Shown here one piece after another: positions 5,636-33,013 of a stretch of DNA of 64,000 nucleotides. The number at the start of each line of letters is the position of its first letter. The stretch's first letter is position 1. This DNA comes from Escherichia coli. Lineage in GTDB: Bacteria > Pseudomonadota > Gammaproteobacteria > Enterobacterales > Enterobacteriaceae. The notes under the pieces are model-generated. The model did not search any database and had not been told where the DNA came from. It worked only from the letters and a program-made list of their open reading frames with translations. The position numbers and the translations under genes are program-made. Where the stretch lies: NCBI RefSeq assembly GCF_030384885.1, contig NZ_CP128613.1; one strand, 5' to 3'.

Positions 5636-5668
5636 TAAGAATCGGGGCTTTCGCCCCGAAGAAATGGA

Positions 5669-8996: not shown

Positions 8997-9005
8997 CTTA
9001 CGTCC

Positions 9006-9956: not shown

Positions 9957-10051
9957 ATTGTTATGTCCGCTACAGAGGGTGATGAGGTTATGAAAGTGAG
10001 GTTGCCCCTCTCCCCAGAAGGGAGAAGGGATCGTAAAGTGCACTTTGCAGG

Positions 10052-13870: not shown

Positions 13871-13909
13871 ACACCGTCTTTCTGGTGTGTTGATAGCAAG
13901 CCTCCCGGT

Positions 13910-14515
13910 TTATGCACCTGCGGCAATCAGTAACTGCGCAATCTCTTCAAAGCCTCGTTCCCGCGCCAGTTCCAGCGGCGTTTTACCATATTTATCGGTC
14001 AGATGCGGGCTGGCACCGTGCTCCAGCAATAACTGGACAATCGCCTGCTGTTTAATCCCACCATCGTTAAGCACAATCGCTTCCAGTAGCGGCGTCCAGC
14101 CAACATGGTTGGTCTGGTTAACGTTAATATCCGTATGCGCCAAAAGCTCTTTTACAATACTTAAATGGCCTTTTTCACAGGCAGGCGTCAGGCCGACACC
14201 GCCGAAACGGGTTACACAATTAAGGTCTGGTTTAGCCGGTAAAATAATTCGTAGTAGCGTTAAATCACCGTTCAGGCAGCTCATTAAAAAAGGATTTAAA
14301 CAGGTCTGGTCTTGTTTATTAATATCCGCACCGGCATCAATTAACGCCTGAACGCAAGCATATTGCTGATATAAACTTGCCAGCGTAATTGCCGTTTTCC
14401 CCTGGCGATCGCAGGTATTAATATCGACACCCAGCGCAAGGCAGGTTTTTACTTTATCGATATCACCCTGTTGTGCAGCCAATAAATAATCGGCAGGTAG
14501 ATTTTTTATACTCAT
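13910..14515 (-). CDS. yahD: Ankyrin-repeat protein
   Basis: 201 aa with repeated ankyrin-type motifs (G-TPL…A…G…-V--LL-.GA-.N). Confidence 0.85.
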   Translation of the reverse strand: MSIKNLPADYLLAAQQGDIDKVKTCLALGVDINTCDRQGKTAITLASLYQQYACVQALIDAGADINKQDQTCLNPFLMSCLNGDLTLLRIILPAKPDLNCVTRFGGVGLTPACEKGHLSIVKELLAHTDINVNQTNHVGWTPLLEAIVLNDGGIKQQAIVQLLLEHGASPHLTDKYGKTPLELARERGFEEIAQLLIAAGA

Positions 14516-14618
14516 TCACATTCCCCTGGTATTTGTGGCTGTTTTCGATGAATTGAGAATAGCAACGATAATCTGATAAAAGAACCCGCTTAAATTTAAT
14601 TCGCCGTATTTCGCCTTT

Positions 14619-14639
14619 TTGTTGAATGATGTTCAACAA
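14619..14639. promoter_or_regulatory. Perfect palindrome TTGTTGAA-TGATG-TTCAACAA in the yahD/yahC divergent intergenic region (candidate operator)
   Basis: 8-bp arms are exact reverse complements with a 5-bp spacer; fits a T-N11-A LysR-type box, with a LysR gene (yahB) adjacent. Confidence 0.4.
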
Positions 14640-14772
14640 TCTTTTCGCAGTGTGCGGTAGTGCAATATTTGTTTCTTTGACCCGATACCCTTTCACTCAA
14701 TCAGGTTTTATTTCTCTATAGTCTGCACATGTAAGAGTAGCTTTCGTCCATGTCTAACCAGAGGGGAACAAG

Positions 14773-15270
14773 ATGAACGGACTCACGGCAACGGGTGTCA
14801 CCGTCGGTATTTGTGCAGGGCTTTGGCAGTTAGTGTCTTCACATGTCGGGCTCTCTCAGGGATGGGAATTATTAGGAACCATTGGCTTTGTCGCCTTTTG
14901 CAGTTTTTATGCCGCAGGCGGCGGTAAATCGGGGTTTATCAAGAGCCTGGCGGTTAATTACTCCGGGATGGTGTGGGCGTTTTTCGCCGCGCTGGCTTCC
15001 GGTTGGCTAGCCTCGGTGAGTGGGATTTCCGGCTTCTGGGCGAGCGTGATTATGACTGTACCCTTCTCGGCGGTGGTGGTCTGGCAAGGACGTTTCGGTT
15101 TACTGTCTTTTATTCCCGGAGGCTTTCTCGGCATGACGCTATTTTTTGCCAGCGGGATGAACTGGACGGTGACATTACTGGGTTTTCTGGCGGGTAACTG
15201 CGTGGGAATAATTTCAGAATATGGCGGACAAAAATTAAGCGAAGCGACGACTAAACGCGACGGGTATTAA
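14773..15270 (+). CDS. yahC: Small inner-membrane protein
   Basis: 165-aa hydrophobic glycine-rich ORF with multiple TM segments. Confidence 0.75.
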   Translation: MNGLTATGVTVGICAGLWQLVSSHVGLSQGWELLGTIGFVAFCSFYAAGGGKSGFIKSLAVNYSGMVWAFFAALASGWLASVSGISGFWASVIMTVPFSAVVVWQGRFGLLSFIPGGFLGMTLFFASGMNWTVTLLGFLAGNCVGIISEYGGQKLSEATTKRDGY

Positions 15271-15361
15271 AAGTTATTCAAAAATGATTATCTATCTTTA
15301 ACCGATACCTCTACAGTCATGACTGGAGAAATTCAAATTAGATAATGGCGGGAATGGTTTA

Positions 15362-16294
15362 ATGAACTCAATTTTCACCGAAGAAAACCTGTTGGCGTTT
15401 ACTACCGCTGCGCGTTTTAGCAGCTTCAGTAAAGCGGCAGACGAGTTGGGTTTAACCACTTCCGCCATTAGCTACACCATCAAGCGAATGGAAACGGGGC
15501 TGGATGTGGTGCTGTTCACCCGTAACACCCGCAGTATTGAGTTAACCGAGTCCGGGCGTTATTTTTTCCGCAAAGCTACCGACCTGCTGAATGATTTTCA
15601 CGCCATCAAACGCAGCATTGATACTATTTCGCAGGGCATTGAAGCACGGGTTCGCATTTGTATTAACCAGCTGCTTTATACGCCCAAACACACCGCACGC
15701 TTATTACAGGTACTGAAAAAGCAATTTCCAACCTGCCAGATTACCGTCACCACCGAAGTGTATAATGGCGTCTGGGATGCGATTATTAATAATCAGGCGA
15801 ATATCGCTATCGGCGCACCCGACACGCTGCTGGACGGCGGCGGCATTGATTACACGGAGATTGGCGCGATTCGCTGGGCTTTTGCTATCGCCCCGGATCA
15901 CCCGTTAGCCTTTGTGCCAGAGCCGATCGCTGAAAGTCAGCTACGTCTCTACCCCAATATCATGGTGGAAGACACCGCGCATACGATTAATAAAAAAGTG
16001 GGCTGGTTGCTGCATGGGCAGGAGTCGATTCTGGTGCCAGATTTCAACACCAAATGTCAGTGCCAGATTTTAGGCGAAGGAATTGGTTTTTTGCCGGATT
16101 ACATGGTCCGTGAGGCGATGGCGCAATCCCTGCTGGTTACCCGACAAATCCATAATCCGCGCCAGGATTCACGCATGTTACTGGCGACCCAGCACTCTGC
16201 CACCGGTCAGGTGACGCAGTGGATTAAAAAACAATTTTCGCCAAATGGCATATTAACGGGGATCTATCAGGATTTACTGCATCGGGAGAATTAA
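15362..16294 (+). CDS. yahB: LysR-family transcriptional regulator
   Basis: 310 aa; N-terminal winged-HTH with the typical LysR signature and a C-terminal substrate-binding domain. Confidence 0.85.
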   Translation: MNSIFTEENLLAFTTAARFSSFSKAADELGLTTSAISYTIKRMETGLDVVLFTRNTRSIELTESGRYFFRKATDLLNDFHAIKRSIDTISQGIEARVRICINQLLYTPKHTARLLQVLKKQFPTCQITVTTEVYNGVWDAIINNQANIAIGAPDTLLDGGGIDYTEIGAIRWAFAIAPDHPLAFVPEPIAESQLRLYPNIMVEDTAHTINKKVGWLLHGQESILVPDFNTKCQCQILGEGIGFLPDYMVREAMAQSLLVTRQIHNPRQDSRMLLATQHSATGQVTQWIKKQFSPNGILTGIYQDLLHREN

Positions 16295-16335
16295 TCGCTG
16301 CCAACCTCCCGATGCGCTGTGAATAGCGGTTTACA

Positions 16336-17424
16336 TCAACCACCTGCTTTCATTACCCATTCAGAGATAAATTTATTACCCGGTACTGGCGGAGAGTACA
16401 AATAGCCCTGCAAAAAGTGAACGCCTTTGCCGATCATTAAATCCGCCTGCTCCTGGGTTTCTACCCCTTCCGCCACGATACTCAGACCAGGCTTACGCGC
16501 CAGTTCGACAATATTGTCCACAATATGACCGGAGATTTCGTCAACACTCGCCATTTGCACAAACGACTTGTCAATTTTAATAAAATCGACCGGAAACGCC
16601 TGCAGATAACGATAGGTCGCATAACCCGTACCAAAGTCATCCAGCGCAAAGGTAATGTTATGCTGATGAAGGCTGTCAAATATCGCTCTGGCTTCTGGCG
16701 TTACCGGAATGGGGTTGCGTTCCGTTAGCTCAAGAACCAGCTTGATTTTATCGTTACCTAATTTCTTGACCAGGTTCAGACACTCTTTTTCAAATCCTGC
16801 GGCCAAAAAACATCCTGCCGAGACGTTGATTCCAATATGGAAATTATCCGGCAGCAAATGTTTTACTGGCATCAGAATATCCGCAGTCTGTTTCATCAGC
16901 TGGCGAGTCATTATGACAATAAGACCGGATGACTCCGCCAGAGGAATAAACTGATCCGGTGGGATAATTCCCGTTTGCGGATGTTCCCAGCGGACAAGCA
17001 CTTCACAGCCCGTCAGTACCCCAGTCTGCGCGCAGAAAACCGGTTGGATCCACGGTTTGAATTCGTGATTTTCCAACGCCAGACTGATGGCTTCAGGCGT
17101 GACGATATGGTGATAGTGATTATCATTAATATATTTGTGACTATTATTACCCGTGGCGGATATGATCTCCGGATTGTACTGAAAGAAAATATCCCGCCAG
17201 AAAGTAATATCGCTCTGAATCCCCAGTTTCTCAAAGAGCTGTTTCTTTTGATGTGAAATGGTCTTTGCACTGCGATTTCTGTACTGTGATATTTCTGTTA
17301 CAGACATTCCCTGCATCAGCAGCTTGAGTAGCAGTCGTTCTTTCTCGGATACGCTACCAGGCAATGACAAATGAACCGTTGTACCGAACTCTTGCAGAAA
17401 AACACGAAAATCACATGAATTCAT
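16336..17424 (-). CDS. pdeL: c-di-GMP phosphodiesterase / transcription regulator (LuxR-type HTH + EAL domain)
   Basis: N-terminal LuxR-type HTH, C-terminal EAL domain (ELTE…DDFGTGY…KIDKSF). Start trimmed to MNSCDF. Confidence 0.85.
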   Translation of the reverse strand: MNSCDFRVFLQEFGTTVHLSLPGSVSEKERLLLKLLMQGMSVTEISQYRNRSAKTISHQKKQLFEKLGIQSDITFWRDIFFQYNPEIISATGNNSHKYINDNHYHHIVTPEAISLALENHEFKPWIQPVFCAQTGVLTGCEVLVRWEHPQTGIIPPDQFIPLAESSGLIVIMTRQLMKQTADILMPVKHLLPDNFHIGINVSAGCFLAAGFEKECLNLVKKLGNDKIKLVLELTERNPIPVTPEARAIFDSLHQHNITFALDDFGTGYATYRYLQAFPVDFIKIDKSFVQMASVDEISGHIVDNIVELARKPGLSIVAEGVETQEQADLMIGKGVHFLQGYLYSPPVPGNKFISEWVMKAGG

Positions 17425-18299
17425 GAACACACCTTTTATCTTTTATCGCTGTTCAGTATGAGTGATTACCTGTGGATTCCTGAGCACACATAAGGGGTAA
17501 CCATAAACATTAGCGATGCCATACGTATAACATCCCACATCACTATCAAGAAGATTATCTTTACCTCTGATGCTCGCTCAAAAACAGTTACGCTAAATAC
17601 CTTAAAAAGGTAATCACAAGTCAAACTCAGGAGATAATCACGCAAGAATGCAATATTAAAATTCAGATACTCATTTTTGGTAATAAAGAAGTAGTTGGAC
17701 TATTTCGATATTTATAATTTCCCACTACGTATTGACGCCCATTCATGAGTAAAGGCGCATTATATGAATTTAACAATCCAGATCAACTGAAAATACCTCA
17801 ACCTCATAAACACATAGCGTCAACATTCAATGACATAATGAGTAAAGATGTTGGTTATGCATACACGTCATTACTCTATGCCAATCCCTTAACAACCTGC
17901 TTTTTAAGACTGAATCCATTCAGCAATAGATAGCCAACATTATAACAATGACAATAAAAACAATATTTAAAACAATCAATAAAATATCAGACACAAACAA
18001 TTAAACCTTAAACAACAAACAGTTACATTGATTTTAGTTGATTTGCGCTATGCGTTCCCCATGAATAAAGCGTCATTTCAAATTAGCACCAATATTTACA
18101 TTAAATAAGACTAAGCTTATTGAACATTCACAACAGTCCAAACGTAGTGTTTGGGCTTCAATAGTTCTTTTCTTTTTTATTATCTGTTGCCTGGCAATCA
18201 TCAATCGATACTAAGGGCTTAACTGTACAGATATAACGTATCAAGAGGTAAGAGAAACCACGCCATATGCAGACATGGCGCGGTTTTATGCAATAACAA

Positions 18300-20333
18300 T
18301 CACGCGTCCGGGAACATTACGCTATTACCCGGCGCTTCACGATGGAGATGGATAAAGTTTAGGTGCCGCTCGTACTGATCGAGAATATCGGTGATCACCT
18401 GCTCTTTGCTGTAGTCCATCAGGTCGTTACCCTGGCTGCCTTCTAACAGGAAGGTTTCCAGCCGGTAATAGGTCGATTTCCCGCTACGTGCGCGGTAGGT
18501 AAAGCCCGGCACCGAATATTGCTGTGGCCAAATCTGATAGACAAAGTTTTGCTCTTCACCCATATGCACCAGCAAATCCAGATGCCCTAACTGTTGTCCC
18601 TCTTCCGGCGGCAGGCTTTTTAGCTCCACGTACGCGCCGCGCAACCGCAGCTCCTGCGCCACTTCTTCCATTGCCGGGTAACAGACCGTCTCCATCATCT
18701 GTTTGGTGTAACGCGTGCCCGGATAATTCATCAGGCGCGAGAGACGTTTTTTCCAGCTCAGGCGATCCTGAAGCCCCAGCGGTCGCGGCGCGGTATCACG
18801 GTTGGCACTTTCACGGCGGTAATCTTCTACCTTCAGAGATTTATACAATCCCGCCATCACGAAGAAAATCACAAAGCTGAACGGCAGCCCCATGATTACC
18901 GTGGTGTTTTGCAGCGCGGATATCCCGTTGGTCATCAGCATGCCAAGCGTCAGCAGACCAATCGCCACCGACCAGAAGACGCGCAGCCAGCCGGGGGCGT
19001 CGCTGTTGATATCTTTAAGCTGCGAGGTGAAATTCCCCAGCACCAGCGCGCCGGAGTCCGCCGAGGTCACATAAAACAGCAGGCCAGTAATGGTGGCAAC
19101 CGAGGCGCTAAAGGTAAACGCCGGATACTGCGCCAGCAGGCTGTAGAAGCCGCGCTCCGGATGGACCATCGCTTCCTCGGCAAATGCCGCGCCGCCGTGG
19201 ATGATTTCATACAGCGCGCTATTGCCGAATACCGAGAGCCATAACAGCGTGAAGGTAAACGGAATAATCAACGTGCCCAGCACGAACTGGCGAATGGTGC
19301 GTCCACGCGAGATACGCGCCAGGAACAGGCCGACAAACGGCGACCAGGCTACCCACCATGCCCAGAAAAAGAGCGTCCAGTTATTCATCCACTCAACCGG
19401 GCGGTCAAAGGCGAAACTGTTGAGCGTCATGCCCATAAAGCGGTTAACGTAATCGCCAACGTTCAGCACCAGCGCATTAAGCAGGAACGAGGTGTCGCCC
19501 ATAAACAGCACGAACAGGATCAACCCCAGCGCCAGTGCGACATTGAGTTCAGACAATACGCGAATGCCTTTGTCGACACCGGAAGTCACCGAGATAGTCG
19601 CGATGATTACCGACAGCGCGATCAGCGCCGCTTTCGCCGCCATTGAATCCGGGATATCAAACAGTACGCTCAGGCCATAGTTAAGCTGCACCACGCCAAT
19701 GCCGAGCGTGGTGGCAATCCCGAAGATGGTGCCGATCACCGCTGCAATATCCACCGAGTGACCAATCGGCCCGTTGATCCGTTTACCGAAAATCGGATAC
19801 AGCGCCGAGCGGATCGTGAGCGGCAAATTATAACGATAGCTGAAGTATCCGAGCGCCATGCCCATCAGCGCATACATCGACCAGCCGGTTAAGCCGTAGT
19901 GAAACAGCGTCCAGACCATCGCCTGACGCGCCGCTTCCATCGTCTGCCCTGCCCCTTCCGGCGGCTGCATATACTGCGTGACCGGCTCAGCAACGGAGAA
20001 GAACATCAGATCAATACCAATCCCGGCAGCGAACAGCATCGCCGCCCAGCTCAGTAGACTGAATTCCGGTTTGGATTGTTCAGGCCCGAGCTTCACCGAA
20101 CCAAAACGCGAACAAGCGATGCAGACCACAAAGACAATATAGAGCGTTGCCGCCAGCAGATAGTACCAACCGAAGGTTTTAGAAACCCAGTCCAGCGTGC
20201 GGCCAATCCACAGGGCCGAGAAGTCGCGAAACAGGATCGTTGTCAGGGAAAACAACAAAATCAGTCCGGCGGAGGTGTAAAACACCACCGGATTGATTTT
20301 GTCCTTTTCCCTGCTGTGCGAAAGGTCTGTCAT
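18300..20333 (-). CDS. betT: High-affinity choline transporter (BCCT family)
   Basis: 677-aa polytopic membrane protein with a BCCT-type core and long C-terminal cytoplasmic tail; divergent from betIBA. Confidence 0.95.
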   Translation of the reverse strand: MTDLSHSREKDKINPVVFYTSAGLILLFSLTTILFRDFSALWIGRTLDWVSKTFGWYYLLAATLYIVFVVCIACSRFGSVKLGPEQSKPEFSLLSWAAMLFAAGIGIDLMFFSVAEPVTQYMQPPEGAGQTMEAARQAMVWTLFHYGLTGWSMYALMGMALGYFSYRYNLPLTIRSALYPIFGKRINGPIGHSVDIAAVIGTIFGIATTLGIGVVQLNYGLSVLFDIPDSMAAKAALIALSVIIATISVTSGVDKGIRVLSELNVALALGLILFVLFMGDTSFLLNALVLNVGDYVNRFMGMTLNSFAFDRPVEWMNNWTLFFWAWWVAWSPFVGLFLARISRGRTIRQFVLGTLIIPFTFTLLWLSVFGNSALYEIIHGGAAFAEEAMVHPERGFYSLLAQYPAFTFSASVATITGLLFYVTSADSGALVLGNFTSQLKDINSDAPGWLRVFWSVAIGLLTLGMLMTNGISALQNTTVIMGLPFSFVIFFVMAGLYKSLKVEDYRRESANRDTAPRPLGLQDRLSWKKRLSRLMNYPGTRYTKQMMETVCYPAMEEVAQELRLRGAYVELKSLPPEEGQQLGHLDLLVHMGEEQNFVYQIWPQQYSVPGFTYRARSGKSTYYRLETFLLEGSQGNDLMDYSKEQVITDILDQYERHLNFIHLHREAPGNSVMFPDA

Positions 20334-20461
20334 CCAGTATCCCCACTGTTATTGTTACCATTTAAAATCAAATTAGTAACAATTAAGACACATTTTATAT
20401 TGAACGTCCAATCAATAACGGCTTTAATGTATAAACAACGCTGATGAATGGAGTGGCAAAA
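20334..20461. promoter_or_regulatory. betT / betIBA divergent promoter-operator region
   Basis: AT-rich 128-bp spacer between divergent starts containing an imperfect inverted repeat ATTGAACG…CCAATCAAT that could be the BetI operator. Confidence 0.5.
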
Positions 20462-21049
20462 ATGCCCAAATTGGGGATGCAGTCGATCCGGCGCAGACAA
20501 CTGATCGACGCCACGCTGGAAGCAATAAATGAAGTAGGTATGCACGATGCGACGATCGCGCAGATCGCCCGCCGGGCGGGCGTTTCCACCGGGATCATTA
20601 GCCACTATTTCAAAGATAAAAATGGTCTGCTGGAAGCAACCATGCGTGATATCACCAGCCAGCTGCGTGACGCGGTCTTGAACCGCTTACACGCGCTACC
20701 GGATGGCAGCCCTGAGCAGCGATTACAGGCGATTGTTGACGGAAATTTCGATGAGACTCAGGTCAGTAATGCTGCGATGAAAGCCTGGCTGGCGTTTTGG
20801 GCCAGCAGTATGCATCAGCCGATGCTTTACCGTTTGCAGCAGGTGAGCAGCCGCCGATTGTTGTCGAATCTGGTGAGCGAATTTCACCGCGAGTTACCGC
20901 GCAAAGAGGCACAGGAGGCAGGTTATGGCCTGGCCGCGCTGATTGACGGTTTATGGCTGCGCGCGGCATTGAGCGGTAAACCGCTGAATAAATCTCTCGC
21001 ACACTCGCTCACCCGCCACTTTATCACTCAGCATTTACCCACCGATTAA
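20462..21049 (+). CDS. betI: TetR-family repressor of the bet regulon
   Basis: 195 aa from [14 protein letters not shown]; N-terminal TetR HTH. Confidence 0.9.
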
Positions 21050-21062
21050 CCGAGGAGACGTG

Positions 21063-22535
21063 ATGTCCCGAATGGCAGAACAGCAGCTTTATATACATGG
21101 TGGTTATACCTCCGCCACCAGCGGTCGCACCTTCGAGACCATTAACCCGGCCAACGGTAACGTGCTGGCGACCGTGCAGGCCGCCGGGCGCGAAGATGTC
21201 GATCGCGCCGTGAAGAGTGCCCAACAAGGGCAAAAAATCTGGGCGGCGATGACCGCCATGGAACGCTCGCGCATTCTGCGTCGAGCCGTTGATATTCTGC
21301 GCGAATGCAATGACGAACTCGCTAAACTGGAAACCCTCGACACCGGAAAAGCGTATTCAGAAACCTCAACCGTCGATATCGTTACCGGCGCGGACGTGCT
21401 CGAGTACTACGCCGGGCTGCTCCCGTCGCTGGAAGGCAGCCAGATCCCATTGCGTGAGACGTCATTTGTTTATACCCGCCGCGAACCGCTGGGCGTAGTG
21501 GCAGGGATTGGCGCATGGAACTACCCGATCCAGATTGCCTTGTGGAAATCCGCACCGGCGCTGGCGGCAGGCAACGCGATGATTTTCAAACCGAGCGAAG
21601 TCACCCCGCTTACCGCGTTAAAGCTGGCTGAAATCTACAGCGAAGCGGGCCTGCCGGACGGCGTATTTAACGTGTTGCCGGGCGTAGGTGCGGAAACCGG
21701 GCAGTATCTGACCGAGCATCCGGGCATCGCCAAAGTGTCGTTTACCGGCGGCGTCGCCAGCGGCAAAAAGGTGATGGCTAACGCGGCGGCCTCTTCCCTG
21801 AAAGAGGTGACCATGGAGCTGGGCGGTAAATCGCCGCTGATCGTTTTCGACGATGCAGACCTCGATCTCGCCGCCGATATCGCCATGATGGCGAACTTCT
21901 TTAGCTCCGGTCAGGTGTGTACCAATGGCACCCGCGTGTTTATTCCGGCGAAATACAAAGCCGCGTTTGAGCAGAAAATACTGGCGCGCGTTGAACGCAT
22001 TCGCGCGGGCGACGTTTTCGATCCGCAAACTAACTTCGGCCCGCTGGTCAGCTTCCCGCATCGCGATAACGTGCTGCGCTATATCGCCAAAGGCAAAGAG
22101 GAAGGTGCTCGGGTGCTCTGCGGCGGCGATGTGCTGAAGGGTGATGGCTTCGATAACGGCGCATGGGTTGCTCCGACCGTATTCACCGATTGCTGCGACG
22201 AAATGACTATCGTGCGCGAAGAGATCTTCGGCCCGGTGATGTCGCTCCTCACGTATGAGTCTGAAGACGAAGTGATTCGCCGCGCCAATGATACCGACTA
22301 CGGTCTGGCGGCGGGTATCGTCACGGCGGATCTGAACCGCGCGCATCGCGTCATTCATCAGCTGGAAGCCGGCATTTGCTGGATCAACACCTGGGGAGAA
22401 TCCCCGGCGGAGATGCCCGTTGGCGGTTACAAACACTCCGGCATTGGCCGTGAGAACGGCGTGATGACGCTCCAGAGTTATACCCAGGTGAAGTCCATCC
22501 AGGTTGAGATGGCTAAATTCCAGTCCATATTCTAA
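21063..22535 (+). CDS. betB: Betaine-aldehyde dehydrogenase (NAD+)
   Basis: 490 aa; aldehyde dehydrogenase motifs including the catalytic Cys region ([13 protein letters not shown]) and [10 protein letters not shown]. Confidence 0.95.
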
Positions 22536-22548
22536 CCAGGAGGTTTAT

Positions 22549-24237
22549 TTGCAATTTGACTACATCATTATTGGCGCCGGCTCTGCCGGCAACGTCCTCG
22601 CGACACGTCTGACTGAAGATCCGAACACTACCGTGCTGCTGCTTGAAGCGGGCGGCCCGGACTATCGCTTTGACTTCCGTACCCAAATGCCCGCTGCGCT
22701 GGCGTTCCCGCTACAGGGTAAACGCTATAACTGGGCGTATGAGACCGAGCCGGAACCGTTTATGAACAACCGTCGCATGGAGTGCGGACGCGGTAAGGGG
22801 CTTGGTGGATCATCATTGATCAACGGCATGTGTTACATCCGTGGTAACGCGCTGGATCTCGATAACTGGGCGAAAGAACCCGGTCTGGAGAACTGGAGCT
22901 ACCTCGACTGCCTGCCCTACTACCGCAAGGCCGAGACGCGCGATGTGGGCGAGAACGACTACCACGGCGCTGATGGCCCGGTAAGCGTGACCACCTCAAA
23001 ACCGGGTGTCAATCCGCTGTTTGAAGCGATGATTGAGGCGGGCGTGCAGGCGGGCTATCCGCGCACAGAAGACCTTAACGGTTATCAGCAGGAAGGTTTC
23101 GGCCCGATGGACCGCACCGTCACGCCGCAGGGCCGTCGCGCCAGCACCGCGCGGGGTTATCTCGATCAGGCTAAATCGCGCCCGAACCTGACTATTCGAA
23201 CTCACGCCATGACCGATCACATTATCTTTGACGGCAAACGCGCGGTAGGCGTCGAGTGGCTGGAAGGCGACAGCACCATCCCAACCCGCGCAACGGCCAA
23301 CAAAGAAGTGCTGTTATGTGCAGGCGCGATTGCCTCACCACAAATCCTGCAACGCTCCGGCGTCGGCAACGCTGAACTGCTGGCCGAATTTGATATTCCG
23401 CTGGTGCATGATTTGCCCGGCGTGGGCGAAAATCTTCAGGATCATCTGGAGATGTACCTGCAATACGAGTGCAAAGAACCGGTTTCCCTCTACCCTGCCC
23501 TGCAGTGGTGGAATCAGCCGAAAATCGGTGCGGAGTGGCTGTTTGGCGGCACCGGCGTGGGTGCCAGCAACCACTTTGAAGCAGGCGGATTTATTCGCAG
23601 CCGTGAGGAATTTGCGTGGCCGAATATTCAGTACCATTTCCTGCCAGTGGCGATTAACTATAACGGCTCGAACGCAGTGAAAGAGCACGGCTTCCAGTGC
23701 CATGTCGGATCGATGCGCTCGCCAAGCCGTGGGCATGTGCGGATTAAATCCCGCGACCCGCACCAGCATCCGGCGATTTTGTTTAACTACATGTCGCACG
23801 AACAGGACTGGCAGGAGTTCCGCGACGCGATTCGCATCACCCGCGAGATCATGCATCAACCGGCGCTGGATCAATACCGTGGCCGCGAAATCAGCCCCGG
23901 CGCGGAATGCCAGACAGATGAGCAGCTCGATGAGTTCGTGCGTAATCACGCCGAAACCGCCTTCCACCCATGCGGTACGTGCAAAATGGGGTACGACGAG
24001 ATGTCCGTTGTGGATGGCGAAGGCCGCGTGCACGGGCTGGAAGGATTACGCGTAGTCGATGCGTCAATTATGCCGCAGATTATCACCGGCAATCTGAACG
24101 CCACGACCATTATGATTGGCGAGAAAATGGCGGATATAATTCGCGGACGAGAAGCGTTGTCCAGAAGTCTGGCGGCGTATTTTGTGGCGAATGGGATGCC
24201 AGTAAGAGCGAAAAAACTGAATCGCGATTTGAACTAA
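22549..24237 (+). CDS. betA: Choline dehydrogenase (GMC oxidoreductase, FAD)
   Basis: N-terminal FAD motif [11 protein letters not shown]. The only in-frame start with a good RBS (AGGAGG, ~5 nt upstream) is TTG at ~22549; the track's ATG at 22504 lies inside betB without an SD. Confidence 0.9.
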
Positions 24238-24256
24238 CGCAGGAACTTATAAGCTT

Positions 24257-24315
24257 GAGAGTTACCGTTCTACGATAAGGACCGAATCCTTATATAAAAA
24301 ACATAGGTAACTCTC
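24257..24315. repeat. Nested inverted repeats downstream of betA (outer GAGAGTTACC / GGTAACTCTC, inner ATAAGGA-CCGAA-TCCTTAT)
   Basis: Read directly; could be a terminator or REP-like structure. Confidence 0.3.
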
Positions 24316-24870
24316 ATGCTTCATATCCAGTATTCATGATGCTGGTTTTTTGCTGATGTTTTTACCAGAATATTCCTGATACAGACTATTAATTCAAGCT
24401 TATCTGCGACAGATTTCATTTTCTGGATATATTATGAGTGACAAATCAAACAGGATATCGATCTGATTGAAATTTTATTTTATCTGAAGAAAAAGATTCG
24501 TGTTATTCTGTTTATTATAGCTGTTTGTATGACAATGGTGCTATTATTTCTGTACATCAATAAAGACAATATAAAGCTGAGTTACAGCCTAAAAATAAAC
24601 CACACAACATCAGGCATACTTGTAAGCTGTGATAGCAATAATAACTTTGCCTGTCAGACCACAATGACTGAAGATGTTATTCAGCGAATTACGAGTTTTT
24701 TAGACCAGTACTAATGCTAAAAATTGCCTTGTCAAAAAAATGGTAGATGAATACAAACAAAACTCTGGGCAGTAATAAACAGCATTCTGACAGAGAGTGC
24801 CTGTATAAAGCTGAAGTGACAATGACCGGGAAGGGAGCCCGTCTTCAGGAAAGGATTCCTGTCTTTTTCA

Positions 24871-24911
24871 CTGTAAATATCCTGGCATTATTAATGTCAG
24901 GATATTTACAG
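24871..24911. terminator. Perfect 14-bp-stem hairpin (CTGTAAATATCCTG … CAGGATATTTACAG) between convergent betA and ykgG
   Basis: Exact reverse-complement arms around a 13-nt loop, lying just 3' of the ykgG stop. Confidence 0.4.
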
Positions 24912-25017
24912 AAGAGGAGCATAACCATGACGGAACGGGGTTAAGTCAGGTTGTCCTTAACGCTATTCACAACCTCGTATACCGCCTTCAGGTTTATGTC
25001 CAGACTTCATATCTCTC

Positions 25018-25713
25018 TCAGCAATCCTCAATAATCAGATACACCGCTTTCACCGGACCATGAACCCCGACGACTTTGATAAGCTCAATGTCCGCCGTTG
25101 AACTGGGACCACTGATGATGTTAATACATGACGGCATTCGTTCACCGGCCTGCGCTTTCTGATGCAATTTTTCTGCGAGTTGCGCTACACGCGGCAGGAT
25201 TGTGCTTTTACGCAGGATAAAAAGAGAAGATTCCGGGAGCAGGCTCAATGAACGCCCGCGCCCGGCGGCGGAAAAAAGAACCACGCCTCCCGATTCGGTT
25301 AAACCATATTCAGCATACACTACGCCAACTTTAGCCTGCTCTGCTTGTGATATGTTCTCAATACCTTTCGCCGGATCCCAAACAACGGCATTGCATTCCT
25401 GCTGCAAACGTTCGCTAATCCCCAACTCCTCCAGCCTCGTGTCACCGCTAATCACGACCGACTGCTCTCCCAGCTCTTTACACAGACATATTGCAGCTTC
25501 TGCCGCCTTCGCCTCGCTGGTCAGTTCACAGCGCGTCAACATAACATCGCTGGCAAACTGGATAAACGCGTCACAGCGCTGCTGTTGGTTAAGTTCGGTA
25601 AGCCGCTCGTTAGCATAGTTGTTAAGCGGCGCATCTTCTGCTTGCGGTTCAAGTCGCTGCGGGCGACCCAGTGCCTGAGCAACGTTATTCAAAAATTCGC
25701 TCCGATTATCCAT
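25018..25713 (-). CDS. ykgG: LutC-like protein (DUF162)
   Basis: 231 aa from MDNRSEF; the track ORF (282 aa) has an N-terminal extension overlapping ykgF. Confidence 0.85.
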   Translation of the reverse strand: MDNRSEFLNNVAQALGRPQRLEPQAEDAPLNNYANERLTELNQQQRCDAFIQFASDVMLTRCELTSEAKAAEAAICLCKELGEQSVVISGDTRLEELGISERLQQECNAVVWDPAKGIENISQAEQAKVGVVYAEYGLTESGGVVLFSAAGRGRSLSLLPESSLFILRKSTILPRVAQLAEKLHQKAQAGERMPSCINIISGPSSTADIELIKVVGVHGPVKAVYLIIEDC

Positions 25714-27133
25714 TCTTTTTCTCCTGCGCCTGATGTTTCTTAAACCAACTACGGAAACTCTCTCCGTCAGCTTCAGGAAGATCGCGTGCTTCCATCCAGT
25801 CGCTAATCGCGCCAAATTTGAGTGGTGTTTTGCCGCCATTGATAAACCAGCTTGCCGCATGAGCACCAGCCATCATCCCGACTTTCCACAATCCTGGATG
25901 ACTATTGGCATAAGCGAACATTTTTATCGCCCGTTGCTCTGCTTTTGCGGTGATCCCTTTTTCAGCCATCACCCGACGATGACGCAAAATCAGTTTTGAC
26001 AGAGGAATACGCACCGGACACACGCTGTCACAAGCCGTACATAAAGAGCAAGCGTAGGGTAAATCTTTAAAATCTTCATAGCCGCCAAGTAACGGGGAAA
26101 TCACCGCACCAATTGGCCCAGGATAAATAGAACCATATCCATGACCGCCAATATGGCGATATGCCGGACAGGTATTCATACAGGCTCCGCAGCGAATACA
26201 ACGCAGCACATCCCGAAATTCAGAGGCCAGCACCTCAGAACGCCCGTTATCGACAATAACCAGATGAAACTCTTCAGGACCATCAACGTGCCCCGCTTCG
26301 CGCGGTCCTGTCAGCCAGGTGTTGTATCCCGTCAAACGTGCACCAACGGCACTGCGCGCCAGCATGGTGATCAATACATCTACCTCGGCAAACGTGGGGG
26401 CAATACGCTCCATTCCCATCACGGCAATATGCGTTTTAGGCAGCGTGGTACACATTCGCGCATTACCTTCATTGGTCACCAGGCATACCGAACCGGTCTC
26501 TGCCACCGCGAAATTACAGCCGGTAATACCTATTTCAGCACTGAGGAAATCTTCGCGGATTTTTTGCCGAATGAATAAGGTCATCGCTTCAGGCGTTTCC
26601 GGCCCCTCATAACCCAGACGTTCGTGTAGCACTCGACGGATCTGATGGCGATCTTTATGAATTGCCGGGACCACAACATGAGAGGGCGGATCTTGATCCA
26701 GCTGGAGAATGTATTCACCCAGATCGGTTTCAATCACCTGAATACCAGCATCCTGCAACACATGATTGACACCAATCTCTTCGGTCACCATCGATTTAGA
26801 TTTCACCACCTTCCGGGCATTTTTGCGTTGGGCGACCTGTAAAATGTAGCGGGTGGCGTCTTCTTTAGTTTTTGCAAAATAGACGTGACCGCCGTTTTGC
26901 GTCACTTTTTCAGAGAGCTGGTACAGATAAGCGTCGAGATTACTCAGAACATGATCACGTATCTGGGCGGCCCGATCGCGCCACTCCTCCCAGTGCCCCA
27001 ATTCATCGACCATTTTTTGCCGATTTGCCCCAATACGCTGCTGCGCGTTTGCCACCGCTTTGCGCATGATCGGATCTTCAATTTGCTGACGGATGCGTGT
27101 CTTAAAATCTGTATTACTGGTTTTGATCGACAT
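25706..27133 (-). CDS. ykgF: LutB-like iron-sulfur protein
   Basis: 475 aa; two ferredoxin-type 4Fe-4S cysteine clusters (CIRCGACMNTCP, CSLCTACDSVCP). Confidence 0.9.
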   Translation of the reverse strand: MSIKTSNTDFKTRIRQQIEDPIMRKAVANAQQRIGANRQKMVDELGHWEEWRDRAAQIRDHVLSNLDAYLYQLSEKVTQNGGHVYFAKTKEDATRYILQVAQRKNARKVVKSKSMVTEEIGVNHVLQDAGIQVIETDLGEYILQLDQDPPSHVVVPAIHKDRHQIRRVLHERLGYEGPETPEAMTLFIRQKIREDFLSAEIGITGCNFAVAETGSVCLVTNEGNARMCTTLPKTHIAVMGMERIAPTFAEVDVLITMLARSAVGARLTGYNTWLTGPREAGHVDGPEEFHLVIVDNGRSEVLASEFRDVLRCIRCGACMNTCPAYRHIGGHGYGSIYPGPIGAVISPLLGGYEDFKDLPYACSLCTACDSVCPVRIPLSKLILRHRRVMAEKGITAKAEQRAIKMFAYANSHPGLWKVGMMAGAHAASWFINGGKTPLKFGAISDWMEARDLPEADGESFRSWFKKHQAQEKKNG

Positions 27134-27143
27134 CTTTATATCC

Positions 27144-27863
27144 TCAGCGGCTCATCAGCACTTCAGCAATATGCATCACTTTGACTTTCTGCCCTTCCCG
27201 TTGTAATCGTCCACTGATGTTTAGCAGGCAACTCACGTCAGCACCAATTAAATACTCAGGGCGGACTTCCATCAGGTGCACAACCTTTTCTTTCACCATC
27301 TCGCCGGATATTTCGGCCATTTTGACCGAGAACGTGCCGCCAAATCCGCAGCAGGTATCCTGTTCAGCAAAGGTCAACAGCTCCAGTCCACGCACATTTT
27401 TCAGCAGCGTAAGTGGCTCGTCCTTCACCCCCAGCTTACGGGCCAGGCTACAAGATGGGTGATACACCGCTCTCCCTTGCAAACTGGCACCTACATCGAC
27501 TACCCCTAATGTATTAACAATAAAAGAGGTGAGATCCTGCATACGCGCGGCAACCTTTTCGGCACGTGATGCCCATTCAGGCTCATCCGCCAGATACGTT
27601 GGGTAACTTTTTACGGCATAGGTACAGGAGCCAGCCGGTGAAATAATGGGATCGTCGTTATCCTCCAGTGCGGCGATCAGATTTTTCATCCCTGGAATCG
27701 CTTCTTTGATATAACCACTATTGATCGCAGGCTGACCGCAGCATCCCTGTTTCTCCGGGAAATTTACGCGACAGCCGAGTTTTTCCAGTAGCAGCACGGA
27801 GTCTCGTGCCATTCTTGATTTCAGGGCGTCACCAATACAGGTGACAAAGAAATTGACATTCAC
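27144..27863 (-). CDS. ykgE: LutA-like cysteine-rich (CCG-domain) Fe-S oxidoreductase
   Basis: 239 aa; two CCG-type cysteine motifs (CCGQP, CCGFGG). Confidence 0.9.
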   Translation of the reverse strand: MNVNFFVTCIGDALKSRMARDSVLLLEKLGCRVNFPEKQGCCGQPAINSGYIKEAIPGMKNLIAALEDNDDPIISPAGSCTYAVKSYPTYLADEPEWASRAEKVAARMQDLTSFIVNTLGVVDVGASLQGRAVYHPSCSLARKLGVKDEPLTLLKNVRGLELLTFAEQDTCCGFGGTFSVKMAEISGEMVKEKVVHLMEVRPEYLIGADVSCLLNISGRLQREGQKVKVMHIAEVLMSR

Positions 27864-28380
27864 AACTAATACTCCATTACTTCATGCCCATTTATGCCCG
27901 ATGGTTCCCCCCACCAGGGGATCAATCATCAATAAATATGGCGTTCTTTTTTAATTGGCTAGCAACATACCACCCCTCATTTGTATGACAAATGATAATC
28001 TTTCATCCAAACTTCAAATGCAATAACTAATTTTATTTCTTTCGGCATCGCTCACATTTTATAGGGAAATCGACGATCATTTTTGGCATAAGAAATTCAT
28101 TTAAAAAGGCCACATCCCTTATACCTATTCAGAGCTACTTATTCAGGGGTTGTTGAGATATACAATGATGGTGTACTAACAAAATCACCGGCAATAATCA
28201 GGTATCAAGTAATAGTCGGTATTTTATTTAATTAAAGCAATTTAGTTTGCGTTTTTATTTAGATACTGGGCCAGCATTCTTCAAAAAAACATATAAAACA
28301 CTGTTGGAAATAGAAATAGTTGAAAGGCTCACAACACCCGGAATGCTGATTATCTTTGCTCCGATTCCTGGCGGTTTTAT

Positions 28381-29235
28381 TCAGGGTGCAAGCTGTCTGA
28401 CCCTTTCCCGATATTCTCCCGGGGTACAACCAAACTCGCGGACAAACGCCTTGTGAAAAGATGATTCACTGGCATAGCCTACTGACTCAGCAATCACCAC
28501 AACAGGGAACGTTTCCCGGGAAAACATCTGGGCCGCTATTTGTAGACGCAACTTTGTTAATACAGCCAGCGGCGTGGTTCCGGAAACATCACGGAAAAGC
28601 TGGGCAAAACTTGCCCGGGACATGTGGGCGATGCTGGCCAGCGATTCGACGGTCCAGGCGTGTCCTGGCATTTCCAGCATTTGCTGTATTACCGCACCAA
28701 GACGTGGATGCAGAAGCAAACTGAGAATGTTTTTCTCAGTATTAACCTGTGCAATCCACTCACGCACCGCGAGGGTAAAGAATGTAGCGCAGATCTGGCT
28801 ACACAGTGCATCCACTCCCGGCATTGCCGATTTGGACTCCTGTTGTAAAAACGGGATCGCCTCCCTCAGCCAGTTATATTCCACGCTGTGGTTAACCGGT
28901 GCTAAAAACAGCGTTTCCGGCAAAGACGTTAAAAAATAACGCGCCGAATGTTGCAGCCGAAGAGTGCCGCAGACAATACAGGTCGATTCATTATCGACAT
29001 GACTCAGGCGATGAGCTGAATTTTGTGGTAGCAGGACCACATTTCCCGGGCGTAATGTAAAAATCTCCCCCGTCGGCATTTCCAGCTTCGCCGCTCCTTG
29101 CGTTAACGCATGCCAACGAATAACCGATAATTCCCCGGCACCATGTGGAAGCTGCCAGTCACTTCCTAACACGCAATTCTTATCGATCGTTCCTTGTGGA
29201 GCGTTAAGCATCAACAAACGGCTAAGGGCATCCAT
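28381..29235 (-). CDS. rclR: AraC-family activator (reactive-chlorine response regulator RclR-like)
   Basis: 284 aa; C-terminal AraC HTH; divergent from the rclABC genes. Confidence 0.85.
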   Translation of the reverse strand: MDALSRLLMLNAPQGTIDKNCVLGSDWQLPHGAGELSVIRWHALTQGAAKLEMPTGEIFTLRPGNVVLLPQNSAHRLSHVDNESTCIVCGTLRLQHSARYFLTSLPETLFLAPVNHSVEYNWLREAIPFLQQESKSAMPGVDALCSQICATFFTLAVREWIAQVNTEKNILSLLLHPRLGAVIQQMLEMPGHAWTVESLASIAHMSRASFAQLFRDVSGTTPLAVLTKLRLQIAAQMFSRETFPVVVIAESVGYASESSFHKAFVREFGCTPGEYRERVRQLAP

Positions 29236-29460
29236 ATCAGACTCCTGAGTGGTTTTTGATTACAAACACCAACAATCTTAGACAATAATTAATCTAATAC
29301 CATCAAATGGTTAATCATGATTTTTGTTTTGTGATTCTGATTAAGAAAAAGAAAATACCAGACGATAAGACAAAATATCAAGCGTTGTGAAGAAATGTTA
29401 ATTGCTCTTTTGCGTCTATAGTCATGATGTCAAATGAACGCGTTTCGACAGGAAATCATC

Positions 29461-30786
29461 ATGAATAAATATCAGGCAGTTATTATTGGTTTTGGCAAGG
29501 CTGGAAAAACATTAGCCGTCACGCTGGCAAAAGCAGGTTGGCGTGTGGCTCTCATCGAACAATCAAATGCAATGTATGGCGGGACCTGTATTAATATCGG
29601 CTGTATCCCAACCAAAACATTGGTTCATGACGCACAGCAGCACACAGATTTTGTCCGTGCCATACAGCGTAAAAATGAAGTGGTTAATTTTTTACGTAAT
29701 AAGAATTTTCATAATCTTGCGGATATGCCCAATATCGACGTGATCGACGGCCAGGCGGAGTTTATCAATAATCATAGCCTGCGTGTTCATCGGCCTGGGG
29801 GAAATCTGGAGATTCATGGCGAGAAAATTTTTATTAATACCGGTGCACAAGCCGTGGTTCCGCCAATTCCTGGAATTACCACCACGCCTGGTGTATATGA
29901 CAGCACCGGATTACTTAATCTAAAAGAATTGCCTGGGCATTTAGGTATTTTGGGCGGCGGATATATTGGCGTTGAGTTCGCCTCTATGTTCGCTAATTTT
30001 GGCAGCAAAGTAACCATTTTAGAGGCAACTTCGCTGTTTTTGCCTCGGGAAGATCGGGATATTGCTGATAATATCGCGACGATTTTACGCGATCAGGGCG
30101 TCGATATTATCCTCAATACCCATGTGGAGCGAATCAATCACCATGAAAATCAAGTGCAAGTGCATAGCGATCACGCCCAACTGGCGGTGGATGCACTGTT
30201 AATAGCTTCCGGTCGTCAACCGGCTACCGCTTCGTTACATCCAGAAAATGCAGGTATCGCAGTAAACGAACGTGGGGCAATTGTCGTTGACAAGCAATTA
30301 CATACCACCGCAGACAATATTTGGGCGATGGGAGATGTTACCGGCGGGCTGCAATTTACTTACATTTCACTGGATGATTACCGCATTGTGCGTGATGAAT
30401 TGCTGGGAGAAGGCAGACGTAGTACTGATGATCGGAAAAATGTGCCTTATTCCGTATTCATGACACCGCCACTGTCCAGGGTTGGTATGACAGAAGAACA
30501 AGCCAGAGAGAGTGGTGCAGATATTCAGGTGGTGACATTGCCTGTAGCTGCAATTCCGCGCGCAAGAGTGATGAACGATACCCGTGGGGTATTAAAAGCG
30601 ATTGTTGATAATAAAACCCAACGTATATTAGGGGCATCACTGCTGTGTGTTGACTCCCACGAGATGATCAATATAGTAAAAATGGTGATGGATGCCGGGC
30701 TGCCTTATAGCATATTACGCGATCAGATATTTACTCATCCGTCGATGAGCGAATCACTCAATGATCTATTTTCATTAGTCAAATAA
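29461..30786 (+). CDS. rclA: Pyridine nucleotide-disulfide oxidoreductase (RclA-like)
   Basis: 441 aa from MNKYQAVIIGFGKAGK; FAD fold and the redox-active CxxxxC motif (GGTCINIGCIPTK). Confidence 0.9.
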   Translation: MNKYQAVIIGFGKAGKTLAVTLAKAGWRVALIEQSNAMYGGTCINIGCIPTKTLVHDAQQHTDFVRAIQRKNEVVNFLRNKNFHNLADMPNIDVIDGQAEFINNHSLRVHRPGGNLEIHGEKIFINTGAQAVVPPIPGITTTPGVYDSTGLLNLKELPGHLGILGGGYIGVEFASMFANFGSKVTILEATSLFLPREDRDIADNIATILRDQGVDIILNTHVERINHHENQVQVHSDHAQLAVDALLIASGRQPATASLHPENAGIAVNERGAIVVDKQLHTTADNIWAMGDVTGGLQFTYISLDDYRIVRDELLGEGRRSTDDRKNVPYSVFMTPPLSRVGMTEEQARESGADIQVVTLPVAAIPRARVMNDTRGVLKAIVDNKTQRILGASLLCVDSHEMINIVKMVMDAGLPYSILRDQIFTHPSMSESLNDLFSLVK

Positions 30787-30894
30787 ACTCAAAATCAGAC
30801 GCCAGGACAAATATTCTGGCGTCTCAGAGAAAAGAATCTTATTAATTCCTTGTTATTATATAACTTCTTAATCACTTCATTGATGGTATTTTAT

Positions 30895-31131
30895 ATGTTT
30901 AAAAAACCTGTTTTATTTGCAACACTATTATCTGGCGTTATGGCATTTTCCACCAATGCAGATGATAAAATAATTCTGAAACATATCAGCGTCTCGTCAG
31001 TATCAGCATCACCGACAGTTCTGGAGGATGCCATTGCTGATATAGCCAGAAAATATAATGCTTCATCCTGGAAAGTCACATCGATGCGAATTGATAATAA
31101 TTCAACCGCAACAGCAGTATTGTATAAATAA
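30895..31131 (+). CDS. rclB: Small periplasmic protein (RclB-like)
   Basis: 78 aa from MFKKPVLFATLLS with a signal peptide. Confidence 0.75.
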   Translation: MFKKPVLFATLLSGVMAFSTNADDKIILKHISVSSVSASPTVLEDAIADIARKYNASSWKVTSMRIDNNSTATAVLYK

Positions 31132-31142
31132 GGATGTTCACA

Positions 31143-31736
31143 ATGGAAAAATACCTGCACCTGTTAAGTCGGGGAGATAAAATTGGCCTGACATTGATTC
31201 GTCTGAGTATTGCGATTGTTTTTATGTGGATTGGGTTATTAAAGTTTGTCCCTTACGAGGCAGACAGCATTACACCATTCGTCGCAAACAGTCCACTAAT
31301 GTCGTTCTTTTATGAACACCCGGAAGACTATAAACAGTATCTGACTCACGAAGGCGAATACAAACCAGAAGCAAGGGCATGGCAATCGGCCAATAATACC
31401 TATGGTTTTTCCAACGGTCTTGGCGTCGTGGAGGTGATTATTGCTCTGCTGGTTTTGGCTAATCCTGTCAATCGCTGGTTAGGTTTATTGGGAGGGCTGA
31501 TGGCATTTACCACACCGTTGGTAACACTCTCATTTTTAATCACCACCCCGGAGGCATGGGTACCCGCATTGGGTGACGCTCATCATGGTTTCCCTTATTT
31601 ATCCGGTGCTGGTCGCTTGGTATTGAAAGATACTCTGATGCTGGCAGGTGCTGCCATGATAATGGCAGATTCGGCGCGGGAAATTCTTAAACAACGCAGT
31701 AATGAATCCAGTTCAACGTTAAAAACTGAATATTGA
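31143..31736 (+). CDS. rclC: Inner-membrane protein (RclC-like)
   Basis: ~197-aa multi-TM protein immediately after rclB. Confidence 0.8.
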   Translation: MEKYLHLLSRGDKIGLTLIRLSIAIVFMWIGLLKFVPYEADSITPFVANSPLMSFFYEHPEDYKQYLTHEGEYKPEARAWQSANNTYGFSNGLGVVEVIIALLVLANPVNRWLGLLGGLMAFTTPLVTLSFLITTPEAWVPALGDAHHGFPYLSGAGRLVLKDTLMLAGAAMIMADSAREILKQRSNESSSTLKTEY

Positions 31737-31769
31737 TAATCCGAACACTGTCTGTTGTTCACTTTTTCA

Positions 31770-31807
31770 GGCGTCAGGCCCCCTTTCTGATGATGAAGCC
31801 TGACGCC
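31770..31807. terminator. Hairpin (10-bp stem GGCGTCAGGC / GCCTGACGCC) between convergent rclC and the aldo-keto reductase gene
   Basis: Exact reverse-complement arms; candidate bidirectional terminator or REP-like element. Confidence 0.4.
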
Positions 31808-31895
31808 ATATTACCGGAGATATGACAGAGTGAAGATCAATATCACTCCCCTGTTAAAAGATTCTTGTCGTCTCAGGTAAAATACATGATTAATA

Positions 31896-32780
31896 TCAAT
31901 CATGTATTTTTACAGCAAGACAACCACGAACAAATTCAGGATTAAAATGTTTTACCGACTCCCCAACATAACCCAAATCAAGCGAACTAATTTGTGCCAT
32001 TTCTTTCTCTGTCAGTGAGAAATCCCAGATAGCAAAATTTTCTTCGATACGCTGTTGATGTGTCGATTTCGGAATAACGACCACTCCCCGTTGAATATTC
32101 CAACGCAGAATGACTTGAGAAATCGATTTTTGATGGGCATCTGCAATACTCTGAAGCAGATTATTTTCAAAGGGTTTATGTCTTCCACCGCCTAACGGAG
32201 CCCATGCTTCAGGCTTCACGTTATAATACTTCATGGTTGCCAGCGCCTCTGGTTGGGCAAAATAGGGATGCAACTCGACCTGGTTGACCATCGGTTTAAC
32301 TCTTGCCGTTTCACAAAAGTTCGCCAGAACATGAGGATAGAAATTGGAAACCCCAATTGCTTTTAATTTGCCCTCTTCATAGGCATCTTCGAGTGCACGC
32401 CACGCACTGAAATAATCGCGCATAGCCTGGTGCAATAAATAGAGGTCGAAGTATTCTAGTCCCGATTTTTTTAATGACGCTTCAATACCTGCTTTTGCCG
32501 TATCCTGATTCAACATATCCTGCACCCACAATTTAGACGTTATAAATAACTCATCTCGGGTACATAAACCTTCAGATATAGCTTCACGAACGGCTTCACC
32601 GACGGCATCTTCATTACCGTATACCGCTGCAGTGTCGATGAGTCGATAACCCGTGCGGATAGCGTTCAACACTGACTGTTTGCACACGTTTTTATCGGTA
32701 ACCTGAAAAACACCAAATCCCATCATCGGCATTTTCAGATTGTTACTTAATACGGAAAATTCCACTGTCAGTCCCTCCAT
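31896..32780 (-). CDS. Aldo-keto reductase family oxidoreductase
   Basis: AKR motifs (GYRLIDTA…YGNE; LxxxGxxYxDLYLLH; IPKS). True start may be the internal MPMMGFG (~32732). Confidence 0.8.
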   Translation of the reverse strand: MEGLTVEFSVLSNNLKMPMMGFGVFQVTDKNVCKQSVLNAIRTGYRLIDTAAVYGNEDAVGEAVREAISEGLCTRDELFITSKLWVQDMLNQDTAKAGIEASLKKSGLEYFDLYLLHQAMRDYFSAWRALEDAYEEGKLKAIGVSNFYPHVLANFCETARVKPMVNQVELHPYFAQPEALATMKYYNVKPEAWAPLGGGRHKPFENNLLQSIADAHQKSISQVILRWNIQRGVVVIPKSTHQQRIEENFAIWDFSLTEKEMAQISSLDLGYVGESVKHFNPEFVRGCLAVKIHD

Positions 32781-33013
32781 TAGGCATGAACAATGAGTCT
32801 ACGTTAAAACGTAACCTCAAATTAGTATGTGGATTTTGATATCACTTATGCAAAAAATTCATTAATAATGTAGGACTGAAACCTCTCTATTTTCGGGGAC
32901 AACGAAGCAGACGCTACCAGTGCTTTTGCCTTCGCCCTTGCTGTTTTTGATACACTTAGGGCCCAGGGCATAACGAAAATGTGCGATATGACAAAGAATT
33001 AACGGAGAATGTG

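Follow-up and report, generated by a model that had tools for sequence, protein, structure and literature searches.

Within the 64,000-nucleotide (64-kb) stretch of Escherichia coli DNA analysed here, hereafter the window, which corresponds to positions 2377338–2441337 of the NZ_CP027579.1 chromosome, the choline dehydrogenase gene betA (22549..24237, plus strand, 562 aa, placed from the mapped RefSeq annotation and the ORF list) and the LutC/YkgG family gene ykgG (25018..25713, minus strand, 231 aa, placed from the mapped RefSeq annotation) enclose an interval of 780 bp at positions 24238–25017. The 980 bp around this interval are 100% identical to those of E. coli 2013C-4282 (NZ_CP027579.1). 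K-12-type strains carry the gene ykgH in the same place, as 222 codons in an interval of 1,123 bp, and the size of about 222 aa given for its product in an earlier note on this DNA was accurate. That note had also described the interval as AT-rich and devoid of an intact gene of the size of ykgH, and both statements stand: its GC content is 36.4%, versus 48.4% in the whole window and 51–60% in the flanking genes, and its longest ORF has 65 codons for amino acids. Only three ORFs of at least 40 aa are found, namely 24529–24714 (plus strand, 61 aa), 24747–24944 (plus strand, 65 aa), and 24700–24822 (minus strand, 40 aa), the two on the plus strand being those already listed. The lack of a long ORF is unsurprising by itself in 780 bp of DNA with 36% GC, and it matters only because at least 80% of ykgH, whose intact form has a GC content of 37%, is present in 4,892 of the 5,426 complete E. 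coli genomes. In the RefSeq annotation of NZ_CP027579.1, positions 24445–24699 are marked as an incomplete pseudogene with the label 'hypothetical protein', and a pseudogene is also marked in the other inspected genomes that carry the same allele.

The surroundings of the interval show features of their own. Towards the left end of the window, a segment of approximately 5.2 kb between yahK and yahJ (2219–7316) has no counterpart in the K-12 locus and contains an operon for a sugar/autoinducer-2-type ABC transporter (two permeases, an ATPase, and a binding protein) together with a gene encoding an ASCH-domain protein. The betA product comprises 562 aa in the window and in strain 042 and 556 aa in K-12, and a 1-bp difference in an A-run within betA (24200–24237) shifts its stop codon 18 nt downstream. 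The yah–bet side of the locus (about 8000–24700) is unusually polymorphic, with 92–97% identity among the window, 042, and K-12, while the ykgEFG–rcl side (24724–33000) shows 97–99% identity; this change in polymorphism falls in or near ykgH.

The lesions in ykgH were placed by DNA alignment against the intact alleles of K-12, 042, Nissle, and O157:H7, and they were also mapped by long-gap-tolerant alignment and tblastn, the stop codons being confirmed by translation. Alignment to K-12 ykgH, which the earlier note had suggested, shows that codon 3 lacks 1 bp and that the middle of the gene is shorter by a net 326 bp, and it leaves both gene ends in the interval. The 5' remnant (24434..24692, plus strand), supported by alignments, translations, and tblastn, equals nucleotides 1–260 of the K-12 gene (codons 1–87), and the 3' remnant (24724..24775, plus strand) equals nucleotides 618–669, that is, codons 207–222 and the TAA stop codon. 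The deletion junction between them is an unalignable patch of 31 nt, GAGTTTTTTAGACCAGTACTAATGCTAAAAA (24693..24723, plus strand), which replaces nucleotides 261–617.

The first lesion is the absence of one A of codon 3, between positions 24441 and 24442, and the frame that starts at the original ATG codes for ten residues, MSDKSNRISI, and then meets a stop codon at 24464–24466. In the second lesion, 357 nt (codons 88–206) have given way to 31 nt, a loss that removes the bulk of both the predicted periplasmic part and the second membrane helix of the protein. Translation shows that the shifted frame encodes YkgH residues 4–87 and terminates at a TAA within the 31-nt patch, while the tail of the protein, CLVKKMVDEYKQNSGQ, is encoded in the third frame. 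The tblastn searches match YkgH residues 4–90 to positions 24442–24702 (90% identity, E = 1e-47) and residues 207–222 to positions 24725–24772 (94% identity, in a frame unlike that of the 5' remnant), whereas residues 91–206 have no match anywhere in the 64-kb window.

Compared with K-12 ykgH (b0310), the locus shares the slot between betA and ykgG, the strand, the upstream region, the 3'UTR, and a protein identity of 90% over codons 4–87 and 94% over codons 207–222. It differs in the frameshifted codon 3, the exchange of codons 88–206 for 31 nt, and the different frames of the two remnants. Position is as for intact ykgH, between betA (or, in other strains, the hyx island) and ykgG and on the strand of betA, but the uninterrupted ORF of about 222 codons is missing, and the two terminal helices modelled for the intact protein (about residues 2–42 and 186–220) are not both encoded here, the second one being mostly gone. 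A second copy of ykgH was not found in NZ_CP027579.1, in which megablast and tblastn, at their sensitivity, returned one partial match only, so the gene does not lie elsewhere in that genome record; and since both gene ends lie in the interval, the interval once contained ykgH. With a homologue that is intact in relatives and lesions that disable the copy present here, ykgH in this genome is a unitary pseudogene formed by deletion and frameshift. The earlier note had left open whether the gene was decayed or replaced: decay is what the two gene ends and the aligned lesions demonstrate, and replacement did not hold. In the 5' remnant, the substitutions private to this allele are 6 synonymous and 5 non-synonymous, both small counts. 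Much of the roughly 7% divergence of this remnant probably predates the inactivation, because a ratio of 6:5 departs from the approximately 1:3 of long neutral drift.

The patch at the junction cannot be read as altered ykgH sequence in any simple way. In a forced alignment, it shows 11 mismatches in 31 nt to its positional counterpart in K-12, a stretch at which intact ykgH alleles differ among themselves by only 0–3%. When the patch was aligned locally with both strands of the K-12 ykgH region and of the whole window, no template emerged that scored better than those of shuffled patches. Likewise, the sequence that preceded the deletion was not recovered among the 5,426 genomes, in which no intact allele is closer than about 93–94% to the remnant. 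Rather than a clean deletion, the event is best seen as an exchange of 357 nt for 31 nt of filler, and since the source of the 31 nt was not found, the junction event is more complex than a simple deletion.

An interval in which short ORFs take the place of a long one could be explained differently, namely by the replacement of ykgH with one or more functional small-protein genes, corresponding to the 61-aa ORF, the 65-aa ORF, or both. The two ORFs exist, and the second one has some features of a coding sequence: the 65-aa ORF (24747..24944, plus strand), which overlaps the ykgH tail, the 3'UTR, and the palindrome designated below as hairpin 2, is open in all eight alleles translated, has few variable second codon positions (10, 2, and 10 variable sites at the three positions, a deficit that is borderline), and is predicted by gene callers on at least 1,000 contigs. 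However, the 61-aa ORF (24529..24714, plus strand) is the shifted ykgH frame itself, which runs from the internal Met33 to a new TAA in the patch, retains just nine residues from the first membrane helix, and stops within the filler; its exact peptide is absent from a collection of 15 billion proteins, and it has no Pfam family. The 65-aa ORF, in turn, is unchanged beside intact ykgH and is therefore not a replacement for it. Moreover, of its variable codons, 15 alter the amino acid and 6 are silent, which is near the neutral ratio; the hairpin 2 palindrome codes for its hydrophobic stretch, and the ORF is not annotated in RefSeq. Many GenBank records of E. coli label it 'universal stress protein' or 'hypothetical protein', and the former label is unsupported, since the ORF has no Pfam family. 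Judged from these sequence features, the 65-aa ORF is probably not a gene, the balance leaning towards non-coding DNA, and a replacement of ykgH by small-protein genes is most improbable.

The distribution of the allele was followed with a 55-mer that spans the junction (window 24686–24740): it begins 7 nt before the end of the 5' remnant, covers the whole patch, and extends 17 nt into the 3' remnant. This probe occurs in exactly 15 of the 5,426 complete E. coli genomes, with 100% identity in each. That the missing part of the gene is an artefact of assembly or sequencing can practically be dismissed, as the identical junction is present in these 15 independent complete assemblies, which derive from human, cattle, dog, goat, pig, and food sources in several countries, and eight of the assemblies were checked base by base. 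When eight carriers were aligned, the codon-3 deletion, the patch, and a gap of 324 columns were common to all eight, and the patch was invariant. Two of them, 2017-02-2CC and 2020CK-00188, have in addition lost the start codon by a change of ATG to ATA (window 24436), and 2020CK-00188 has a further 1-bp deletion within the remnant (window 24590). Thus, decay of the remnant is continuing in sub-lineages.

The carriers also resemble each other beyond the junction. The betA haplotype of the window is confined to the 15 carriers, with 95.7–100% identity among them and at most 93.5% in all other genomes. At the ecp operon, 23 kb away, 14 of the 15 carriers are among the closest relatives of the window (98.3–99.0% identity), and these 14 exceed every other strain except RMDEC465 (98.8%). 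Strain 2013C-4282 and the carrier EC42405 have been assigned to Escherichia cryptic clade I (Okuno et al. 2023). The simplest reading of this distribution is one old event that was inherited vertically in a rare deep-branching lineage, and a single origin is what we infer from it.

The sharp junction inside ykgH would also be compatible with recombination of another kind, in which a segment with the bet side of a divergent donor was imported and homology-facilitated illegitimate recombination joined its end to ykgH at the place of the deletion. Identity to K-12 and 042 does rise from 92–96% on the left of the junction (24701/24724) to 97–99% on its right, betA in the window is no more than 93.5% identical to that of every non-carrier, and illegitimate joins typically contain filler DNA. 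Yet the same step appears when 042 is compared with K-12 (94–97% on the left, 97–99% on the right), and because these two strains share it, the step belongs to the locus as such and is not peculiar to the strain analysed here. Furthermore, to the left as well as to the right of the junction, the window has the carriers as its closest relatives, and these form part of a named deep lineage. The distinct haplotype is explained by vertical descent, since the carriers are coherent on both sides and belong to clade I. With the step also present between 042 and K-12 and the carriers coherent in this manner, foreign import was dropped as the main explanation and is regarded as very unlikely.

Strain RMDEC465 (NZ_CM177019.1, 2044000–2058000) has a mixed relationship to the window. 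It is near the window in the ykgG–rcl region (up to 99.7%) and in ecp, and in both regions neither 042 nor K-12 resembles the window as closely. Nonetheless, it carries an ordinary intact ykgH (93.8% identical to the remnant) and the upstream hyx island. This combination of window-like ykgG–rcl and ecp sequences with an ordinary ykgH and the hyx island implies that recombination had a boundary at the 3' end of ykgH or close to it.

Because the short allele sits in a deep-branching lineage, one could ask whether the short form came first and gave rise to the 222-codon K-12 gene through an insertion of about 330 bp. Nevertheless, the short form has no open frame, as codon 3 is frameshifted and the two ends lie in different frames, and the long form is present in all major E. 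coli backgrounds sampled. The only distant full-length homologue, on the metagenome contig ERZ27287602 k141_3088 (280–1098), is 50% identical to K-12 YkgH and collinear with it through the central region. Since this homologue keeps the central region, the long form of ykgH is ancestral, and a derivation of the K-12 gene by insertion is extremely improbable. The metagenomic homologue lies directly downstream of an autotransporter C-terminus and has an in-frame TAA opposite Arg85 in the alignment, which reflects either another decayed copy or a sequencing error.

Inactivation of ykgH is not restricted to the lineage represented by the window. In 5.8 billion proteins, relatives of YkgH were found only in Escherichia, apart from one fragment with 54% identity, and many of the database matches are truncated, frameshifted, or affected by in-frame deletions. 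Independent lesions comprise an internal stop codon in O157:H7 OK1, a deletion of about 118 bp in AF40, and IS1 events. These alleles have in common with the one described here that ykgH is inactivated, whereas the lesions and the lineages are different, and the clade I-linked allele has the largest internal loss seen. The independent inactivations in several lineages show that ykgH is dispensable and has decayed independently many times. The K-12 'protein YkgH' is annotated as a predicted inner-membrane protein, and the gene figures in the literature in metabolic-engineering and genome-integration studies as well as in one study of L-forms, in which a point mutation in ykgH is reported.

A clue to what the intact protein may do comes from weak similarities to the Wzz polysaccharide co-polymerases. 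YkgH residues 8–44 match the Pfam family Wzz (PF02706) with 18.5 bits, below the cut-off of 25.5, residues 150–212 match Pfam GNVR below the curated cut-off, and the N-terminus gives weak matches to TIGR01006 and WzzB (NCBIfam WzzB, 11.6 bits versus a cut-off of 267). Sequence searches found no solved structural relative of YkgH, and a single-sequence AlphaFold2 model has a mean pLDDT of 51, with values below 50 in the central domain and confidence in the two terminal helices only. The weak matches fall in the places expected for a Wzz protein, and in the model, whose quality is too low for comparing folds, the two helices flank a central domain; against this, all scores lie below the cut-offs, and YkgH is about 100 residues shorter than WzzB. 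Thus, the idea of intact YkgH as a small Wzz-like co-polymerase is a lead and does not amount to membership in the family.

The interval also contains several inverted repeats, two of which had been singled out in the earlier note as strong hairpins. Both are confirmed by folding (z about −7 and −8), the first one being slightly larger than noted (24251–24321 instead of 24257..24315). Hairpin 1 (24251..24321, not assigned to a strand) is a long imperfect palindrome just past the stop codon of betA. It encloses a small hairpin, is present in single copy in the window, and lacks a T-run of its own. Its arms (24251–24266 and 24306–24321) are 94% complementary, and, together with the adjacent stem-loop, it folds with −36.6 kcal/mol (z = −7.4, none of 200 shuffles as good). 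Downstream of hairpin 1 lies a canonical intrinsic terminator (24327..24351, plus strand, supported by the terminator scan and the fold), in which the stem CCAGTATT/GATGCTGG at 24327–24345 is followed by TTTTTT and which probably ends the transcript of the bet operon. Hairpin 2 (24871..24911, likewise without strand) is a near-perfect 20-bp palindrome between the convergent ykgH and ykgG, with 20-nt arms that are 95% complementary, a folding energy of −30.6 kcal/mol, and z = −8.1, no shuffle being as good. Neither strand carries a T-run after the stem of hairpin 1 or hairpin 2, which excludes them as intrinsic terminators, whereas a stem-loop followed directly by a T-run is found at 24327–24345 and at 24846–24861 (plus strand), where the terminator scan detects a terminator-like stem in the ykgH 3'UTR followed by TCTTTTT.

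Hairpin 1 is kept beside intact ykgH in K-12 and 042 and is also present in AF40, and hairpin 2 is conserved in all 14 alleles inspected, the sole change in its stem being that of a G–U to a G–C pair. The hairpins are not products of the decay of ykgH, as they are nearly unchanged beside the intact gene. A repeat of the REP/BIME type was rejected for both; each arm motif occurs at a single site in the 64-kb window, and the interval maps to a median of one site per genome. In addition, an Rfam scan of 24100–25150 returned only chance-level matches, all far below the gathering scores. Nissle, O157:H7 OK1, and RMDEC465 have a hyxRAB/upaB autotransporter island upstream of ykgH in place of bet. 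In strains with this island, homology to the window starts at about 24323, just past hairpin 1, which is swapped for a different GC-rich hairpin, while the 24327 terminator remains on the ykgH side.

The segment downstream of the ykgH stop codon deserves separate consideration as a source of RNA. The 3'UTR of ykgH is retained (24776..24869, plus strand, placed by the terminator scan and alignments) and includes the stem at 24846–24861 with its TCTTTTT. In K-12, the 'ykgH 3'UTR' is a candidate Hfq-bound small RNA from RIL-seq with a read pile-up, although northern blots for it were negative (Bar et al. 2021). The target of the northern probe and the terminator of the K-12 RNA are retained in the window at about 24806–24869. 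In contrast, the 3'UTR is no more conserved than the remnant among the carriers: the eight aligned carriers have about 20 variable sites in the 242 nt of 24776–25017 and 12 in the 342 nt of the remnant, an excess due largely to a recombined K-12-like block, and these eight genomes give no sign of extra constraint on the 3'UTR. Since the promoter region, the 3'UTR with its terminator, and the ykgH–ykgG palindrome are intact, a transcript that reaches about 24869 and supplies the Hfq-associated 'ykgH 3'UTR' RNA is conceivable, and survival of the locus as an RNA gene is accordingly entertained, if as an unlikely outcome. If true, it would be a case of a 3'UTR small RNA outliving its parent gene.

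Taken together, the interval is, with high confidence, a dead copy of ykgH with two lesions, inherited vertically in the cryptic clade I lineage. According to this explanation, an ancestor of that lineage would have lost one base in codon 3 of ykgH and, separately, the centre of the gene (357 nt, codons 88–206) would have been swapped for 31 nt of filler. Either lesion by itself would block the synthesis of the predicted 222-aa inner-membrane protein with two helices, and both together would leave no translatable ykgH product, however short. The remnant would then have been passed on vertically, gathering extra damage in sub-lineages. The flanking RNA structures, i.e., the betA-side palindrome with its terminator, the 3'UTR terminator, and the ykgH–ykgG palindrome, are older than the decay and untouched by it. 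The order of the two lesions and the loss of function are what we infer from the alleles compared.

The remnant of ykgH is an ordinary lineage-specific pseudogene that is already flagged in public annotation, where the RefSeq pseudogene named 'hypothetical protein' could be renamed as a ykgH remnant. Cryptic clade I is otherwise hard to tell from E. coli proper, and for some or all of its members the junction with its filler is a candidate sequence marker. The decayed gene is in itself of little importance; it shows that an AT-rich and almost Escherichia-only gene for a membrane protein is dispensable and has been repeatedly lost, a result that speaks for the current practice of using ykgH as a neutral site for integration.
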